A stretch of DNA of 10,358 nt, from positions 4,799 to 15,156 of the forward strand of contig JBNKNM010000129.1 of the NCBI GenBank assembly GCA_050293845.1. The letters are read 5' to 3'. The notes under the pieces were generated by a model. That model saw only the letters and a program-made list of their open reading frames with translations. It was not told the origin of the DNA and did no database searches. Positions 2,736 to 10,358 of this stretch are shown piece after piece. Source of the stretch: Pseudobacteriovorax sp. (GTDB lineage: Bacteria; Bdellovibrionota_B; Oligoflexia; Oligoflexales; Oligoflexaceae). Positions within the stretch are counted from its first letter, which is position 1. Each line of letters begins with the position of its first letter. A program made the translations under genes and the position numbers.

Positions 2736-2798
2736 ATGGTTAAGTATTTGTTTAAATTCAGTTTATTTCTTTTGCTACTGCAAAATTTTGCATGGGCT
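2736..2798 (+). other. Sec/SPase I signal peptide (21 aa)
   Basis: MVKYLFKFSLFLLLLQNFAWA|QF: basic n-region, hydrophobic core, A-W-A cleavage motif. Confidence 0.85.
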
Positions 2799-5700
2799 CA
2801 GTTTAATCCTGGAGTCAACCTTAAGGAGAATTTTAAGGTCAATACACAAGGCGCATCAACCTACACAATCCCTATAACGATCCCTGATGGCATTAGGTCA
2901 GAGGAAATGAAGCCGGAATTGGCCTTTGTCTACAACAGTCAATCCGGCAAAAATTATCTAGGGAAGGGCTGGTCACTCAGTGGCTTAATGGAAGTTAGCC
3001 GATGTAATAAAACCTTTGCTCAAGATGGTAATAAACAATATTCTTCGCTTTTTTCATCTAGATTTGGAAAGTTTTGCTTTAACGGCCAACGACTAAATCC
3101 TGTTCTTAATGATCAATGGGAAGAGAATGCTCTATTCAAAACCGAAATAGCAACGGACCTAACCTTTAAATCCCAAGGGGAATGTGGCACTGAAAGTCCT
3201 TGCTCATTTATAGCGACTAATCGAAAAACGGGCGTCAAAATGGAATTTGGCAGCTCTCTTAACTCAAGGATATACTTTGAAGGTCGCAGTGATAAAGCAT
3301 TCCTTTGGGCACTAACTAAAGTTTATGATAAAAACGGCAATTACTGGAGTGTCGAATATGATAGACATCCAAATGCATTCTACCCAATGAAAATACAATA
3401 CTCTCAGAATGATGCTCTTACACAGATAGATCGCGAGATTACTTTTGAATATGAAAATCGAAATGATTATCACCCAAAGTATATTTCTACACTTGCAGGT
3501 GGAATCAAATTAGAAAGACGTAAGCGATTGAAAAGAGTTAATATATCTGTCGATGGTGAGCAGTTAAAAAGCTACGTCTTAAATTACGGCTACTCAAATA
3601 CGACTCATGCGAGTTTAATCAATTCGATCGATGAGTGTGCTCTAAATGAATGCCGAGAAATTGCAAGCTTTACATATCATCAGCCAGGCAACGGTTTTAC
3701 AGACAACCAGTTCAATCTTCCAGGTAAAATCTTTTTTAACGACAAAGATTCATCGAAATTTAAAGTCGAAGGTACCTTAGAAGATTTTAATGGTGACGGC
3801 ATCTTAGATTACGCCAATGGAACTTGCTATGACAATGGCTCTTGTAACGACAAACAGGTTCATTTAGGCACGGGAAAAGGATTTATACGCTCTAACTTTA
3901 AATTAATATCAAAAACCAATTACAATGAATTTAATGGTTGGAGAGCGAAGCTTGAATCTGTTTTTACTGACTTCAATGGTGATGGTCTTATAGATTTTAC
4001 CAAGGGCACTTGTTGGGTTGGTTCTCACTGCGAGCATCGCGTTCATCTTAATAATGGTGAGGGTTTTAATAGCAATCCATCCTTTAATCTTTGGGGAAAG
4101 CTCTATTTGAACGAGACTGGTGGCTGGAACTATAGAACAGAAGGGATCTTGCGGGACTTCAATGGTGATGGCCTTCTCGATTATTCTCCCGCATTTTGTA
4201 GAACAAATGGAAGTTGTAGTATAAGGGTATATCATGGAACAAAAAACGGCTTTATCGATACTGGCTATAACCTACCAGAAAAGGTATTTCAAGTAGATGA
4301 AACTGGAAGATGGGGAGGAAGACAAGACGCGATCCTAGAAGATTTTAATGGGGATGGTTTGGTAGACTTTGCACGTGCGTCTTCAGCTTCAGACCGAAGC
4401 ATATGGCTCAGTACTGGAAATGGCTTTAGAAAAGCTGACTACAAGCTACCTAAACATCAAATTTATAGTTTTTATGGTTCAACAGATAATTTTAAGTCGA
4501 AGTTAGAAGGAATATTTGCCGATTTTAATGGAGATGGCCTTGTAGATTTTAGTCGAGCAACTTGTTGGGACGAAGGCAACTGTGATCTTGATATTTATCA
4601 CAACACAGGAAAAGGCTTTGTAAATTCAGGATATAGACTCCCAGGGCATATTTTAAAAAACGAATCACGAGGATGGCGAGTCATAAAGGAAGGTCTTTTG
4701 GCCGATTTTAATGGCGATGGTTTGCTTGACTTTGCTAGTGGATTATGTGATCGGAGCGAGCAATGCGATAAACAAATATACTTCGGAACGGGGAGGGGTT
4801 TTGTATCTGCAGGAGAGAACTTTCCTAGTTCCAGCTACTTTCTACCAGGAAAAGCATTTCATCTTATGAATACCTGGGAGATTAAAACCGAGGCTGTATT
4901 TGCTGATTTTAACGGCGATGGTGCAATAGACTATACTAGGGGAACTCATTGGAATAGCGGACGAAAAGATTACGGTATTAAGTTGAATAAGGCGATTAAT
5001 CCCGACGCTTTAATTGCCATTAAATCTGGTCTAAACTCAGAAGTTAAAATTGAATATAAGCCAATGACTAATGGAGAAATCTATACTAAGGGAAAATCAG
5101 GATCCTATCCCAACGTGGATGTTCAAACTCCTAGGTTTCTAGTGTCAAAATACACACTTTCAGATGGTATTGACAGTAACTATAATTTTCGCTTCAAATA
5201 TGAAGCGGCAAAAGTAAACCGACAAGGTCGTGGTTGGTTAGGTTTTGCAAAATTAGTCGAAATAAATGAAGAGGCAAGAATAAAAAGCACTCGATATTTT
5301 CATCAAAATTTTCCACTACAAGGTCGCATTTCTCGCATTGAGATATCTGATCTCAACAATAATTTGATGAAACGATCTCGATACACTTATGATTATATTG
5401 AGAAAATAGGAGAACGTAAGAAATATTATATTGTTAATATTACACAGATTGATGATGATCTTTACTTGGATGGTAGGTATAACTATACCCTCAGAAAAAA
5501 GTTCAATTATGATGGTTCTGGTAGACTAACGTCTCAATTGAATCTAGGTGATCTTAACAAGGTAGGAGACGAAGTCTATGAGTGTTACCGCTATCAAACC
5601 GGAAGCTTTTTAGCCAGCTACAAAAAAATCACAAAAAACATAGAAAGCTGCAGTCGTCAATCGATTTCTTCGTTTAATGGGACGTCTGATTTAAACCTTA

Positions 5701-8700
5701 CAAAGTTTGATTGGGATAACTTCAAGCTGAAGAGTAAAAAAATATTCGATGATACAATCGGTAGTTTTGTCGGATCGACTTACGAATATTCAGATACTAC
5801 AGGGTCCTTAGTTGCATTAACCAATCAGCTCGGTGCTACAACTAACATAGAGTACATTGGCGATTGGACCGTTAAAAAAATCTATCCATCTATCAAGAAT
5901 GGCAGCCGGCTGGAAGCAAAAAGCCAATATAACAAGTTTGGCAGCATTGAATCGACACTCGATTTTAATCATAATGAGTTGCGGTATGATTACGATAGTT
6001 TTGGACGTATCAAAGGGATTAGGGGGAACTCTACGATTGATGGTAGCGATATCCAACTTGTGGATATTAGCTATTCCTACTGCAAAAATCGGGACGATTG
6101 TCAGTCAGGATTTGTAATTGAAAAGCGAAGCCGAAATAATTGGTATGAAGATAGTGTTGCCAATTGGAACTGGAGCCGTGAATATTATGATGGCTTGGGT
6201 CGCCTTTATTTGACTCGCTGGCAGTCTGGTGATAATGGTGAGAAAATTTCAGAAAAAAGAGTTATTTTTGATCGGCAAGGTCGCGTCTTCAAGGAATCTA
6301 TACCATATTTTCAAGGGGAGACTCCCCAGTGGGTCACGCGCACCTATAAACGCCATAATGCACCGGAATCTACTATTGGTCCCATGGGAGGGATAACGGC
6401 CTACTGCTACGCCCTCGGCGACCAGGACTTTGCTTTTTCCGATATTTGCCAAGATCCAGATTTAGATGACGATCAAAATGCTGGTAGACCAGGTCAAGAT
6501 GAAGTCGACTATTACCAGGAACTGATCGACAAAATTGAAACATCAGCAAATAATGGACCAAGCCTCACGGATGGCAATCGCCAGATGTTAGTCAAAATGT
6601 CTGATCCTCAATTGAGAAATGATGGAAATTCTACGATTGTTTCCATGCGTCAGATTTTAAATTCAGCGGGGCTACCAACTCAAATTATAGATGCAGCCGA
6701 TAACACAGTATCAAAAGTTTATAATGAATTTGGACAATTGATCAAAACTACTGATGCTAAAGGGGTACAAACGAGGTTTACATACAACACACTTGGACAA
6801 GTCGTACAAGTTGTGGATAACTCCCGAGGCACGCAAATTTTCAAATATGATAGTCTCGGTCGTTTACAGTGGTCCAAGAATGACAGGAATATTATAACAG
6901 AATATTACTATGACAACCTCAACAGGGTTGTTGCCAAAGAAACATCCCAAGATCAATCAAATGCCAATATCGTTATTTTCAACTATGATGAAACAACCTA
7001 TAGTAATGGACTTGGTCGACTAACTTCCACTGAATGGGATGAAGGACCAAGAAAATACAAAAAGGTTTGGGCCTACGATAATTTTGGTCGTGCCATTAGT
7101 ACCATCCAAGTTGTATCAGAAGGCACAAGTTCGGAATCTTTTGCAACCCAAGTATCCTACCTACCTAATGGGCAAGTAGAAAACATTACCTATCCCGATG
7201 GCTCTAAGGTTCACTATAGTTACAATGGTAGTTCCTTACTAGCAAATGTGAAGTTGCAAGAATCAGATAATCAGAACGAATTTAAAGAGGTCGTGAGCTA
7301 CAGTAATTACAATGCCAGTGGTCAAGCGGAATCCATCCAATTTGGTAATGGAGTTGTGAGTAGAAAGGAATTTGATGTTTTAGGTCGACTGACTAGCGCA
7401 TCAACCACCCTTCCTAGTGGTAATGTAGCTGACAGTGCCATCTATCATTGGAATAAAGCCGGTAAACTCTACAGTATAGATAGCATGGTGGGTGCATTTG
7501 GCGATCAGGACTTTTTCTACAACCAGCTCGGTCAATTGATCAAGGCTACTGGATCATACGGTACCAAAGAGTACCAGTACGACGAAAGTGGCAATGCTGT
7601 TAAATTAGGTGCCCTAAGGTTTACTTACCAAGAAAATAAAAAACATCTCCTTAAAAGTATTGTTGATCAAAATGGTCAAGAACTAGGAAGCTATTATTAC
7701 GATGAAGTGGGTAACTTGCTAGAACAGCCTATTATCGTCGATGGTCAGGTCAATACTACTAATAAAAAGTACTTTACTTATAATTTAGAGAATCGCTTAG
7801 AAAGCGTCGCCATTGGCCCATCACGATCTGAGGCTAGTATTGTATCGTCCTTTACCTATGATCCATTAGGTCGCAGGATACGAAAAGTAGAAAGTGATGG
7901 TCTGGTTACGCGATACATTACCAATGCATATGAAGTTACTGAGCTTAGCGATGGTAAAACACTCCATACGAAAAACATCGCTGGGTCCGGTGGTATTGTT
8001 GCGGCTACCACCAAGGTTTATACCAAGACCACTGAGGCAGCAGCCTTCCAAAAAAACAGTCGTAGTGTGAAACTAGCCTCACTCAACTATTCAGCGTTTA
8101 ATGGCGCCTTAGAAGGATTATCCTCCATTGCAGGACAATTTTCTGCATCGTTGGGAACACTTTTCCCTAAAATTGTGTTAGCTCTACTCGCTTTGCTAAT
8201 GAGTTTATCACTTGTGTCCATTTACAGGCTACGATCACCAAATTATCGCTTTGCCACAGCTGCGTTGATTTATGGTTTAGTTTTTACCCTAATAACGACC
8301 AGTGGACCTAGCTCCTTAATGGCTGCGATGACTGCGGGTGAACATGGTATGGGCGTACCCCAAGGCATGCGCTTCTTCCATCAAAATCATCAAATGAGCA
8401 GCAATGTTGTCAGTAATGAAGCAGGGAAAGAGGTGGCAAGGGTTGCCTATGAGCCCTTTGGCCTGGTCAATACCAAAGAGAGCACCGGCGAAGATAGTTT
8501 TAGGCAAAAATATACTGGCAAAGAGCTTGATAGCAAAACCGGCCTTTACTACTTCGGTTCCCGATACTACGATCCCGTAATGGGCCGCTTCTTAACTCCA
8601 GATCCTGCTTGGCAATACGATAGCCCTTATATTATGGGAGCTAACGATCCCTTAAGCGGGACGGACCCCGATGGAGAGTTTTTTATTGGCCTTTCAATAT

Positions 8701-10037
8701 TTATAGGAGCCTTAGTTGGTTCATACTTTGGTGGAGTTGCGGCAAATGGTGGCAACTATAATCCAGCAGAGTGGGACTGGAAGTCAGGTAAAACTTGGGC
8801 CGGTCTAATCGTGGGCGGATTAATCGGTGGAGCGAGCGCAGGAGTAGGTGCGGCTCTAACAAGTTCGGGGGCTGGTCTAGGTACCGTCGTAGCAGCCGAA
8901 GCTGGGATGGGTTTCGCTGATGGTATCATCATGGGAGCGATTGAAGGGCAAGAAGGTACGGACCTGTTAATGAATGGCCTTATAGGGGCTGCCATGGGAG
9001 GGGTGGCCGGAGGACTATTTGAGGGGGCCGGTCGCTTGTTCTCAAGATTTAAAGGCTCTGGCAAGTCGGTTGGGAGTAAGATTTCGAAAGGTTGCCCAAC
9101 CAGTTTTGAAGAGGGAACTTTATTAGCCTCTCAAGACGGCCAGAAGGAAATTCAAGATCTTGAAATCGGCGACCAAGTTTGGTCATTTAATGAAAATTCA
9201 GGAAGCTTTGAATTAAAGGAAGTGACCCAACTATTTACCAGAATTGCTAATGATCGTATGGAACTAGTGGTTGATGATGAAACCATTTCCACAACAGCCA
9301 ACCATCCATTCTACGTCGAACGATTGCATGTGGATCTAGAACAGGGAACGATGTCCGTAACTCGGGTTTGGATTGAAGCAAAAGACCTTAAGATTGGCGA
9401 TCAGATTCTGACAAAAGATAGTAAGCTTGCTACCGTTAACGACAAGAAAATTATTACCGAAGAAGGTCGAGTTTACAACCTTGAAGTCGAGGGGAATCAG
9501 AATTATTTTGTGGGTACGGATGAGGTGTTGGTCCATAATTGTGATAGATTTCCAGATGATGTCGTAAAAATTATAGAAGCAGGTACTACTCTTTACCATT
9601 ATACTGATCAAAAAGGTGCAGAAGCGATTTCTACGTCACAAATGATTCTCCCATCTAAAGGAAAAGGAAGAGCCCATCACGGCGATGGCGTTTACTTTAC
9701 CAAACTAGAACCTGGAACGGGAGAAAAAGAGTTATTTAAACATCTATTCACAACCACAGGGAAACTTACAAAATTTCAGAAATATTTTTACCGCAAACGC
9801 CTCACTCACTATGTAAAGGTAAAAGTAAAACATAATGTACAAGTTGAAGAGCACTCCAATTTGAAATTTGGAAAAAATAAGAAAGAGCGGACTAATGCGC
9901 CAATGCGGGCTAATATATATGTGGTTCAAACACGAGATTCAATGCATAGGAATTTTTTTGATGAATGGGAAATCAAAGGGGATGTTCCGGACCTTCCACA
10001 TTATTGGAATGCAGCAATCGAAAATTTACATTTTTGA
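2736..10037 (+). CDS. Secreted Rhs polymorphic toxin, 2433 aa (SpvB/TcB-like, FG-GAP repeats, YD/RHS, Hint, Tox-ART-HYD1-like ADP-ribosyltransferase)
   Basis: Uninterrupted ORF with GAGG upstream (2720-2723). Contains a signal peptide, YTIPI..P....[9 protein letters not shown]..G...LGKGWSL, 7x DFNGDG, RGWLGF, many YDxxGR repeats, the RHS core [26 protein letters not shown], DPDG, Hint blocks and LYHYT...GDGVYFT. Confidence 0.96.
   Translation: [2433 protein letters not shown]
3693..4988 (+). repeat. Seven FG-GAP/VCBS-like repeats of ~61 aa (predicted beta-propeller)
   Basis: DFNGDGxxD starts at nt 3783, 3969, 4155, 4341, 4521, 4704 and 4905 (spacing 62, 62, 62, 60, 61, 67 aa), linked by recurring TGxGF...LPG segments. 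Confidence 0.92.
8367..8678 (+). other. RHS repeat-associated core (aspartic autoprotease) ending in PxxxxDPDGE
   Basis: YEPFG, [44 protein letters not shown] (DPDG at 8664-8675). Confidence 0.93.
9102..9539 (+). other. Polymorphic-toxin-type Hint (bacterial intein-like) domain, 146 aa
   Basis: Block A SFEEGTLL...[12 protein letters not shown]; block B [18 protein letters not shown]; block F [14 protein letters not shown]; terminal VHN|C. Confidence 0.93.
9540..10034 (+). other. C-terminal toxin domain, Tox-ART-HYD1-like ADP-ribosyltransferase (165 aa)
   Basis: LYHYT..KG..AI..S..I.PS......[9 protein letters not shown].P, then THYV and R.NIYV, matching my recollection of the HYD1 ART family pattern. 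Confidence 0.8.
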
Positions 10038-10125: not shown

Positions 10126-10358
10126 ATGAATAAGAGCCGCACACATGAAAACAGTAATAAATTCACAGAAATCATTGCCGATAATTGGGAAAGATTTAAA
10201 GCCGAGTATCCTTCTTTTGACAACCATCATGTAAATAAGCAAGTCGATAAGACATTAAAATGTGCCGATCCTCAGTACGGGTTCAAGCAGTACATGTGTC
10301 TTAGCTGCGGTCAGGAAAGCAAAGTAGTTGCTCACTCGTGTAAATCCAAGTTTTGTCT
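10126..10358 (+). CDS. IS91-family (rolling-circle) transposase, N-terminal zinc-binding domain (runs off window; not in ORF track)
   Basis: MNKSRTHENSNKFTEIIADNWERFK...KCADPQYGFKQYMCLSCGQESKVVAHSCKSKFC matches the IS91 zinc-binding pattern C.DP..GF..Y.C..CG....V..SCKSRFC. Confidence 0.88.
   Translation, partial: MNKSRTHENSNKFTEIIADNWERFKAEYPSFDNHHVNKQVDKTLKCADPQYGFKQYMCLSCGQESKVVAHSCKSKFC

Follow-up and report, generated by a model that had tools for sequence, protein, structure and literature searches.

Predicted stop-transfer helix and internal signal peptide at the shell/core junction of a Sec-exported Rhs toxin from Pseudobacteriovorax sp.

The window analysed in this study is a stretch of 10,358 nucleotides (nt) from Pseudobacteriovorax sp. 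(assembly GCA_050293845.1, contig JBNKNM010000129.1, positions 4,799 to 15,156), and it carries a gene for a large Rhs polymorphic toxin. The junction between the RHS shell and the Rhs-associated core of this protein is interrupted by a hydrophobic insert, in which two helices are separated by a basic loop. In the reading that we prefer, to which we give a probability of about 0.6, helix 1 serves as a stop-transfer anchor and helix 2 as an internal Sec signal, which would be processed by signal peptidase I (SPase I) in this protein and by the lipoprotein pathway in other lineages. Comparison with relatives establishes the architecture of the module, its charge bias, a position-fixed pattern at positions −3 and −1 of the putative cleavage site, and a repeated interchange of this site with a lipobox.

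The insert lies between the last shell strand, which ends in GGIVAATTK (amino acids (aa) 1752-1760, nt 7989-8015), and the core start MRFFHQNH (aa 1878-1885, nt 8367-8390). Hydropathy and motif counts were computed by script with Kyte-Doolittle scale values, and KD19 denotes a window of 19 residues. An earlier interpretation of this stretch, made from its letters without database searches (the sequence-only reading), had described an insertion of about 117 residues. Its strings and coordinates for the junction all agreed with the translation of the open reading frame (ORF) and with hydropathy, and the hydrophobic insertion itself was confirmed. However, the insertion proper comprises about 103 residues (aa 1761-1863), because the last 14 residues (AMTAGEHGMGVPQG) align with insert-free relatives. 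Those relatives have roughly 9-25 hydrophilic residues at this position, in agreement with the short linker that had been assumed to be normal there.

The four parts of the insert are listed in Table 1. Helix 1 contains the top KD19 window of all 2433 residues (mean 2.34), and the basic loop RLRSPNYR appears to double as the n-region of the second signal. The predicted SPase I cut falls after A1863, between nt 8324 and 8325 (SGPSSLMAA, aa 1856-1864; ↓ marks a cut below), and coincides with the end of the insertion proper. Residues 1831-1863 show a positively charged n-region, an h-region and a c-region with Leu at −3 and Ala at −1. They begin at residue 1831 of 2433, far from the N-terminal location of a type I signal peptide; judged by its sequence, this segment works like a type I signal peptide but is an internal one rather than an ordinary member of the class. 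The insert of the window protein is free of Cys and contains no lipobox. A model of aa 1100-1990 was calculated with AlphaFold2 (AF2) from 46 homologues (mean predicted local distance difference test score (pLDDT), 80.8). It places helices at aa 1809-1831 and 1835-1854 as a helix-turn-helix with a pLDDT of about 70, flanked by confident β regions, and the linker of about 50 residues upstream of the helix pair has low confidence.

The insert recurs at the same junction in many relatives. A first search with aa 1690-1990 as the query listed 120 proteins (119 non-self), and a same-junction insert was found in 15 of the 119 non-self proteins listed (BLASTP and MAFFT). In the Myxococcus-type proteins P0019-P0022, the two flanks are joined directly without an insert. 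A profile (A1) built from the 15 carriers was searched against 1.84 billion cluster representatives and gave 349,667 matches at E ≤ 0.001, mostly via the Rhs core; the family counts below rest on the best 150 of these matches. For the alignment to the profile with hmmalign, 141 new proteins were added to the window protein and the 15 carriers, giving a set of 157. A full insert of 80-171 aa (median 123) is present in 130 of them, and the remaining 27 are N-terminally cut, partly aligned or insert-free. The order of the module in the 130 carriers is linker, transmembrane (TM)-grade helix, basic loop and signal-peptide-like segment. Each of the 130 inserts has a segment with KD19 ≥ 1.6 (median 2.33), and two separate hydrophobic segments are seen in 118 at a stricter cut.

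A comparison set of 100 proteins consisted of P0019-P0122 minus P0038, P0059, P0072 and P0086; P0017 belongs to neither set, and P0059, P0072 and P0086 are insert-free yet stand outside the counts. In 96 of the 100, there is no hydrophobic segment in the 130 aa preceding the core (median KD19, 0.55). The other four (P0028, P0056, P0065 and P0074) have their own divergent insert of helix, basic loop and helix at the same junction, which suggests a greater age or a wider spread of the module than the profile family shows. The divergent inserts of P0056 and P0074 (Leptospira by source name) end in SLPGC↓G, and that of P0065 ends in SALA↓A.

Two short motifs were also observed in the inserts. A weak linker motif, [LM][YF]Dxx[ST]xxG, was counted in 46 of 130 inserts (no more than 4 in shuffled sequences), and its equivalent in the window protein is LNYSAFNG. 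By eye, a helix that ends in HP often comes next. Upstream of the second helix, 32 of 130 inserts (no more than 8 in shuffles) have a basic-Pro motif, [RK]x[HN]P (for example, ARRHP).

The charge distribution of the inserts points to a defined topology. The loop between the two hydrophobic segments has a median net charge of +4 (+2 or higher in 107 of the 118 inserts that could be scored) and a median length of 17 residues (range 2-54), and the 15 residues upstream of helix 1 have a median net charge of +1. By the positive-inside rule applied to this family bias, the loop is expected to be cytoplasmic and both flanks periplasmic. The predicted loop-in topology agrees with the N-terminal leaders of these proteins. 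Among carriers with an SpvB start, 46 of 57 have such a leader, compared with 13 of 24 non-carriers (Fisher p = 0.027, with relatedness ignored); an earlier count of 42/53 against 17/28 (p = 0.11) was revised after four hidden carriers were moved. The insert is not simply a trait of exported Rhs proteins, because close insert-free relatives also have leaders. Some of the leaderless carriers resemble proteins with miscalled starts.

The end of the insert carries the pattern of a processing site. A cleavage table was compiled from 54 inserts with a P-G-x-N anchor at their end, and the site was placed seven residues before the anchor end. The aligned −1 residue is Ala in 45 of the 54. Position −3 is small or aliphatic in 51 (A29/V7/T5/L4/S4/I1/G1), and at −4 and −5 Pro is found most often. 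Downstream of the site, A/D/E/N is followed by Leu (36) or Met (10) at +2. Read as sequence, this is a classical P-x-A-x-A↓ c-region. In the family register, the window protein reads S-L-M-A↓A-M-T-A-G-E-H, with Leu at −3 and Ala at −1. The looser motif [AVSTLIGC]-x-A lies close to the end in 83 of the 88 inserts without a lipobox and is also found in 41.7% of random windows from the same proteins; the weight therefore lies on the position-fixed table, as the loose motif is frequent by chance.

At the same place, 42 of the 130 inserts after curation carry a lipobox (for example, LAAC↓SG, FTAC↓SG and LSAC↓G). In the first-pass lipobox class (n = 40), the uncharged run before the Cys has a median of 14 residues (interquartile range 14-16), the last charged residue is Arg in 39, and the residue after the Cys is Ser (16), Gly (9) or Asn (4), with Lys once. 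In the lipobox inserts, a Gly/Ser-rich stretch of about 15-30 residues lies between the Cys and the conserved G.P.G..YYH. A maximum-likelihood tree was quickly built from 149 flanking columns only, with 58 of its 127 inner branches unresolved. On this tree, SPase I-type and lipobox-type endings are separated by 7 changes, compared with about 35 for shuffled labels, and at least five switches are forced by branches with a Shimodaira-Hasegawa-like approximate likelihood ratio test (SH-aLRT) value ≥ 95. Curated classes were used for the 7 changes; the first automatic classifier misassigned several rows and gave 11. Unless the export and processing machinery reads this segment, the repeated interchange of the two endings is difficult to account for. 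The closest named relatives, both Oligoflexus (P0004 and L009), have a conserved Cys at the cleavage position in QPSC↓SS and QPGC↓SS, which is noncanonical as a lipobox (Gln at −3 and Pro at −2).

These results bear directly on the topology put forward in the sequence-only reading. Its stop-transfer anchor and cytoplasmic basic loop gain support from the family charge bias, and its SPase I-cleavable second signal from the position-fixed −3/−1 pattern and the lipobox replacements. The cut it proposed (SGPSSLMA↓A) falls exactly on the aligned site of the family, and the TM-basic-TM-cleavage pattern, whose conservation it had named as a check, recurs at the same junction in 130 of the 157 aligned relatives.

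Taken together, we propose the following route. The module of about 103 residues would occupy the turn that leads from the last strand of the shell to the first of the Rhs core. The N-terminal signal would start Sec export and bring some 1790 shell residues into the periplasm. Helix 1 would then halt the transfer and stay in the inner membrane, with the basic loop remaining in the cytoplasm. Helix 2 would re-engage the Sec translocon as an internal signal and lead out the core, the pre-toxin module, the HINT domain and the ADP-ribosyltransferase (ART) toxin. A cut by SPase I after A1863 would give a two-chain cage. The shell chain would retain the C-terminal helical hairpin as its inner-membrane tether, and the core-toxin chain, starting with AMTAGEHG 14 residues ahead of its first β strand, would close the cage through strand complementation. 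Where the site is a lipobox, in other lineages, Lgt and LspA would work on the Cys instead, and the core-toxin chain would be lipidated. Membrane insertion, cleavage, chain association, the tether and any release step are what we infer from the family patterns. If the hairpin lies in the membrane, the junction must open to the cage exterior, which is a firm prediction.

Table 1. Features of the window. Insert parts are given first, then the other domains of the toxin gene and the neighbouring ORFs.
Feature	Position (nt)	Strand	Basis or remark
Insert part 1, linker, aa 1761-1812	8016..8171	+	AF2: low-confidence helix aa 1764-1779, then coil
Insert part 2, helix 1 IVLALLALLMSLSLVSIY, aa 1813-1830, predicted stop-transfer TM anchor	8172..8225	+	Hydropathy; AF2 helix aa 1809-1831
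Insert part 3, basic loop RLRSPNYR, aa 1831-1838, predicted cytoplasmic	8226..8249	+	Net charge +3
Insert part 4, predicted internal signal peptide	8250..8324	+	h-region FATAALIYGLVFTLITT, aa 1839-1855 (8250-8300); c-region SGPSSLMA
AMTAGEHGMGVPQG, predicted new N-terminus of core chain	8325..8366	+	G.GVP..G stretch common to insert-free relatives
Whole gene, TcB/TcC-type (BC-fusion) Rhs polymorphic toxin	2736..10037	+	Single ORF, 2433 aa; Pfam and NCBIfam domains
N-terminal Sec-type signal peptide, MVKYLFKFSLFLLLLQNFAWA followed by Q	2736..2798	+	Read off translation: n-region Lys, hydrophobic core, A-W-A then Gln
SpvB N-terminal domain, aa 37-89	2844..3002	+	PF03534, E 1.8e-07, 31.1 bits (cut-off 22)
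FG-GAP/integrin-like propeller, aa 350-724	3783..4925	+	Seven D[FVY]NGDG repeats; PF13517, E 5e-16, 59.5 bits
TcdB middle/N-terminal region, aa 712-857	4869..5306	+	PF12256, E 1.3e-10, 41.4 bits
RHS/YD-repeat shell, last strand ends GGIVAATTK	6153..8015	+	PF05593, E 3.8e-23; TIGR01643, E 4.1e-14
Rhs-associated core	8367..8678	+	TIGR03696, E 4.2e-18, 65.6 bits (cut-off 32.5), aa 1905-1980
Gly/Ala-rich hydrophobic pre-toxin module, aa 1982-2100	8679..9035	+	FFIGLSIFIGALVGSYFGG, then NPAEWDWKSGKTW, then glycine-zipper-like helices
PT-HINT autoproteolytic pre-toxin domain, aa 2131-2268	9126..9539	+	PF07591, E 6.2e-18, 65.8 bits (cut-off 27.7)
Tox-ART-HYD1 ADP-ribosyltransferase toxin domain, aa 2286-2372	9591..9851	+	PF15633, E 8.3e-10, 39.6 bits (cut-off 25)
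DDE_Tnp_1 transposase fragments, upstream of toxin gene	299-982, 937-1629	−	ORF and domain matches
106-aa ORF, Xre-like antitoxin helix-turn-helix, sub-threshold	1671-1991	−	E 0.0013, 19.4 bits (cut-off 25.8)
IS91-type transposase start (Zn_Tnp_IS91), 89 nt downstream of toxin gene	10126-10356	+	Domain match

Several observations weigh against this route. The site of the window protein is among the weaker ones, as Leu occupies −3 in only 4 of the 54 aligned inserts, and 25 uncharged residues separate R1838 from the cut, compared with a family median of 21. Because its site is weak and its uncharged run is long, the window protein itself may be an uncleaved signal-anchor. Eleven of the 57 carriers lack a clear leader, and the leader association is weak. 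The TM-grade, Gly/Ala-rich helices after the core should also engage the Sec translocon, and the route does not account for their passage or for the way in which a periplasmic cage tethered to the inner membrane would reach its target. Within the window, no immunity-like ORF is evident downstream of the ART toxin, and transposase fragments lie on both sides. The TcA profiles PF18276 and PF03538 have no match in the host genome, which is 96.4% complete, and 14 control genomes are equally silent, so that this negative does not show a TcA to be absent. Finally, no naturally split two-gene form was found among ten short proteins that were looked up.

With the same topology, helix 2 might instead be a reverse signal-anchor that is never cut, so that a single-chain cage is pinned to the membrane by a hairpin. 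Hydropathy and charge bias would fit this equally well, and the window protein, with its 25-residue uncharged run, its 17-residue h-region and its Leu at −3, looks the part. Long h-regions tend to evade signal peptidase. Signal peptides and signal-anchors are described as differing in length (PMC2120157). However, an uncleaved anchor has no need of the fixed Ala (45 of 54), the small residues at −3 or the Pro at −4/−5, nor of repeated replacement by a lipobox with a Gly/Ser-rich tether (42 of 130 inserts and at least five switches). The lipobox is meaningful only if the segment is processed, and we consider a permanently uncut hairpin unlikely. A further step away is the idea that the helices do not serve the producer membrane at all but are packed in or against the cage as an intramolecular chaperone of the hydrophobic pre-toxin helices that follow the core, or, once delivered, insert in the membrane of the target cell. 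The C-terminus of Tse5 is pore-forming. Rhs cages are known for hydrophobic cargo, and Tse5 (8cp6_B) is among the fold matches of the window protein. The insert tracks the TM-grade module after the core, which 121 of 129 carriers possess, compared with 41 of 99 relatives in the comparison set (about 124 of 133 compared with 38 of 95 after four hidden carriers are reassigned), and the insert-free proteins P0184, P0224 and P0238 have signal peptides and non-hydrophobic post-core regions. However, this co-occurrence ignores relatedness and has exceptions in both directions, as P0259 has the module without the insert and P0074 the insert without the module. Moreover, lumenal packing needs neither a basic loop nor a position-fixed A-x-A, nor a lipobox preceded by an Arg n-region and 14 uncharged residues. 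We regard it as quite improbable.

The insert might also be the scar of a fusion between two former genes, one for a shell ending in an anchor and one for a core-toxin with its own signal peptide, through which a single frame now runs, or the core-toxin part might be made separately from an internal start. The second segment does resemble a complete N-terminal signal peptide with n-, h- and c-regions, and several short database proteins begin in or near the loop. However, the frame is unbroken in the window and at five further loci (L009, L010, L011, L015 and L020), the loop of the window protein has no Met from which to start, and conservation over 130 cluster representatives argues for a function in the fused state. 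Ten short proteins with a start close to the loop or helix 2 were looked up, and several come from contigs hardly longer than the gene, such as P0225 (496 aa on 1556 nt) and P0217 (558 aa on 1796 nt); P0248 (3-Mb contig) and P0208 (7 contigs) were left unsettled. A fusion scar, or separate expression, seems very improbable to us, and an origin by gene fusion would not contradict the stop-transfer and internal-signal reading. P0170, on a 6.4-Mb contig, was considered as a split gene and rejected as a decayed remnant with a stop before the linker and a frameshift inside the loop. Its locus, L097 (G225:C7:3386500-3399300), carries a decayed insert-bearing Rhs copy at nt 8466-11295. An Rhs-repeat fragment is followed by a stop, by the linker and helix 1 in one frame, and by a frameshift in the basic loop; what remains, from the signal peptide through the core to the Gly-zipper part, is the 435-aa ORF entered in databases as the separate protein P0170. 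The N-terminal part of about 1300 aa is missing, and a hisF-like gene lies upstream.

The stop-transfer and internal-signal reading can be extended to an envelope device, although we doubt that the whole chain of steps holds. In this extension, the insert would turn a Sec-exported BC-type cage into a two-chain, envelope-anchored one. The shell hairpin would lie at the pole opposite the propeller gate, so that the exit faces outward. The core-toxin chain would be free in SPase I lineages, as here, or lipidated and passed to the Lol pathway. In myxobacteria, the core and toxin might then be outer-membrane lipoprotein cargo that kin receive through outer membrane exchange. In the recipient, the hydrophobic post-core module would take the toxin through the inner membrane, and PT-HINT would release it. 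If true, this would be a previously unrecognised route of Rhs secretion and assembly, in which a signal peptidase acts as an assembly step.

The remainder of the gene places the insert in a well-defined protein class. Every sequence and fold feature examined for Rhs and for TcB/TcC-type membership was present, and because the domain order (Table 1) and the fold matches agree, the protein is classed as a TcB/TcC-type BC-fusion Rhs toxin. From sequence and model, the gene product is a Sec-exported member of this polymorphic toxin class, with an N-terminal leader of KD10 = 2.27. The shell in the AF2 model is all-β with pLDDT mostly above 90. The matches found with Foldseek include TcdB2-TccC3 (6h6e_F, E 1.9e-33, TMq 0.66) and TcC (4igl_B, TMt 0.70), and cages of type VI secretion systems (T6SS) are also among them (Tse15, 8uy4_A, E 1.1e-33; Tse5, 8cp6_B). 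Model and matches thus indicate the β-cocoon fold of Rhs toxins. The sequence PLSGTDPDG (aa 1972-1980, nt 8649-8675) corresponds to the PxxxxDxxG autoproteolysis motif of the Rhs core, and this motif is described as conserved in TcC and required for cleavage (PMC7861908). In PT-HINT, the intein C-terminal region TIGR01443 scores 26.4 bits (cut-off 15.6). The same architecture is assigned to a 'TcdB/TcaC' export class by Zhang et al. 2012 (PMC3482391).

The module that follows the core is hydrophobic as well, with KD19 values of 1.83 and 1.71, and aa 1982-2100 have no Pfam match. A stretch NPA.WDW.SGKTW is conserved within it. The number of TM-grade helices varies from 0 to 7 across the family; therefore, no fixed topology can be derived for the module. 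A search for its identity via ESM Atlas gave unnamed clusters at 0.90, with recognition below threshold, and leads to DUF637, PT-TG and PT-VENN (0.80-0.84) were too weak to identify it. The G+C content is 0.48 in window positions 8001-9000 compared with 0.36-0.41 in the rest of the window. The rise coincides with the insert and the post-core module, which are rich in Ala, Gly and Leu, and probably reflects codon composition.

The family covers at least five phyla among the named records. By record name, carriers include an Oligoflexus metagenome-assembled genome (MAG; L009) and Oligoflexus tunisiensis (P0004, 43% identity over the region), a Myxococcota MAG (L010) and the cyanobacterium Symploca (L011), and the two Leptospira proteins P0056 and P0074 join them by source name. 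Lipobox carriers include a Myxococcaceae MAG (L015), a Polyangiaceae MAG (P0215) and a 'delta proteobacterium' MAG (L013), and a Pirellulales MAG (L020) has a divergent version ending in VYA↓G. In the order of the cyanobacterial carrier, 9 of 301 genomes closely match the core-proximal part. In the phylum of the window, the module was found in 3 of 131 genomes, including that of the window itself. Such a patchy spread is as expected of a mobile polymorphic toxin. The other Rhs genes of the host genome match the core only, and the one paralog inspected has no hydrophobic junction. At L013 (nt 2975-5731), the open frame across the insert begins only at nt 2975 (919 aa), with a stop upstream of it that may reflect an interrupted gene or an assembly error. 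In the window, the Xre-like ORF sits between the transposase fragments and the toxin gene.

The assembly and delivery of the many signal-peptide-bearing SpvB-Rhs fusions is the question on which this family bears. Rhs and Tc cages are seen as soluble capsules that fold around the toxin in the cytoplasm and exit via the T6SS, lysis or a TcA injector. A stop-transfer helix and an apparently processed signal at the seam would imply that the protein is threaded through Sec in two legs and that the cage is nicked by signal peptidase or LspA and kept on the membrane. The paired SPase I and lipobox versions of one site constitute a natural experiment. In literature searches that covered titles, abstracts and text passages, no description was found of an internal signal peptide, a stop-transfer helix or a lipobox in an Rhs/TcC shell. 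Passages of PMC3482391 and PMC7861908 mention no internal TM or signal element, and those of PMC5562445 do not describe the insert.

The TcB-TcC (BC) cocoon is one of the closest known systems. Classical BC cocoons fold as soluble particles in the cytoplasm. These cocoons and the 'TcdB/TcaC-type' toxins (PMC3482391) share with the window protein the SpvB domain, the FG-GAP propeller, the TcdB middle/N-terminal region, the RHS shell, a core with PxxxxDxxG and a variable C-terminal toxin, and the fold of the window protein matches TcdB2-TccC3 and TcC. The window protein differs from them in the predicted membrane hairpin and internal signal peptide that interrupt the shell/core junction. Rhs cage proteins with TM helices are also found among the prePAAR effectors of the T6SS, whose N-terminal helices are shielded by Eag chaperones and implicated in target-membrane crossing (10.1101/2020.10.28.356139; PMC7773334). 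In contrast, the helices of the window protein lie between shell and core, enclose a basic loop and end, within the family, in a peptidase site or lipobox; a Sec leader is present, and the Pfam scan detected no PAAR domain.

The SitA toxins of myxobacteria, which are transferred by outer membrane exchange, resemble the lipobox lineages in that a polymorphic toxin is borne by a lipoprotein (PMC5562445). The same paper gives the rule that lipoproteins without Lys at +2 are sorted to the outer membrane, and the near absence of Lys at +2 in the lipobox inserts suggests such sorting. However, the lipoprotein signal of SitA is an ordinary N-terminal one and SitA lacks an Rhs cage, the site in the window protein is of the SPase I type, and a transfer of insert-bearing toxins by outer membrane exchange is pure conjecture. 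Teneurins, which are represented among the fold matches by 6fb3_A and 6vhh_A, likewise have a YD/Rhs shell attached to the membrane by a helix. A teneurin has a single N-terminal type II anchor distant from the shell/core junction, and is not known to have a second signal or a cut there.

Signal peptides that are both internal and cleaved typify viral polyproteins; in bacteria they are very rare. To our knowledge, no toxin cage and very few bacterial proteins are made via such a signal; the cytochrome b/c1 precursor FbcH of Bradyrhizobium seems to follow a similar logic. Together with FbcH, polyproteins of enveloped viruses are the nearest analogues of the proposed mechanism; in the glycoprotein precursors of flavi-, pesti- and bunyaviruses, internal signal peptides are reported to be cut by signal peptidase. 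The likeness to the window protein lies in a stop-transfer helix followed by a re-initiating signal, at which cleavage yields two mature proteins. In contrast to the products of these viral precursors, which mature at the endoplasmic reticulum (ER), and of the respiratory-chain precursors, both products of the Rhs toxin are predicted to re-form one fold.

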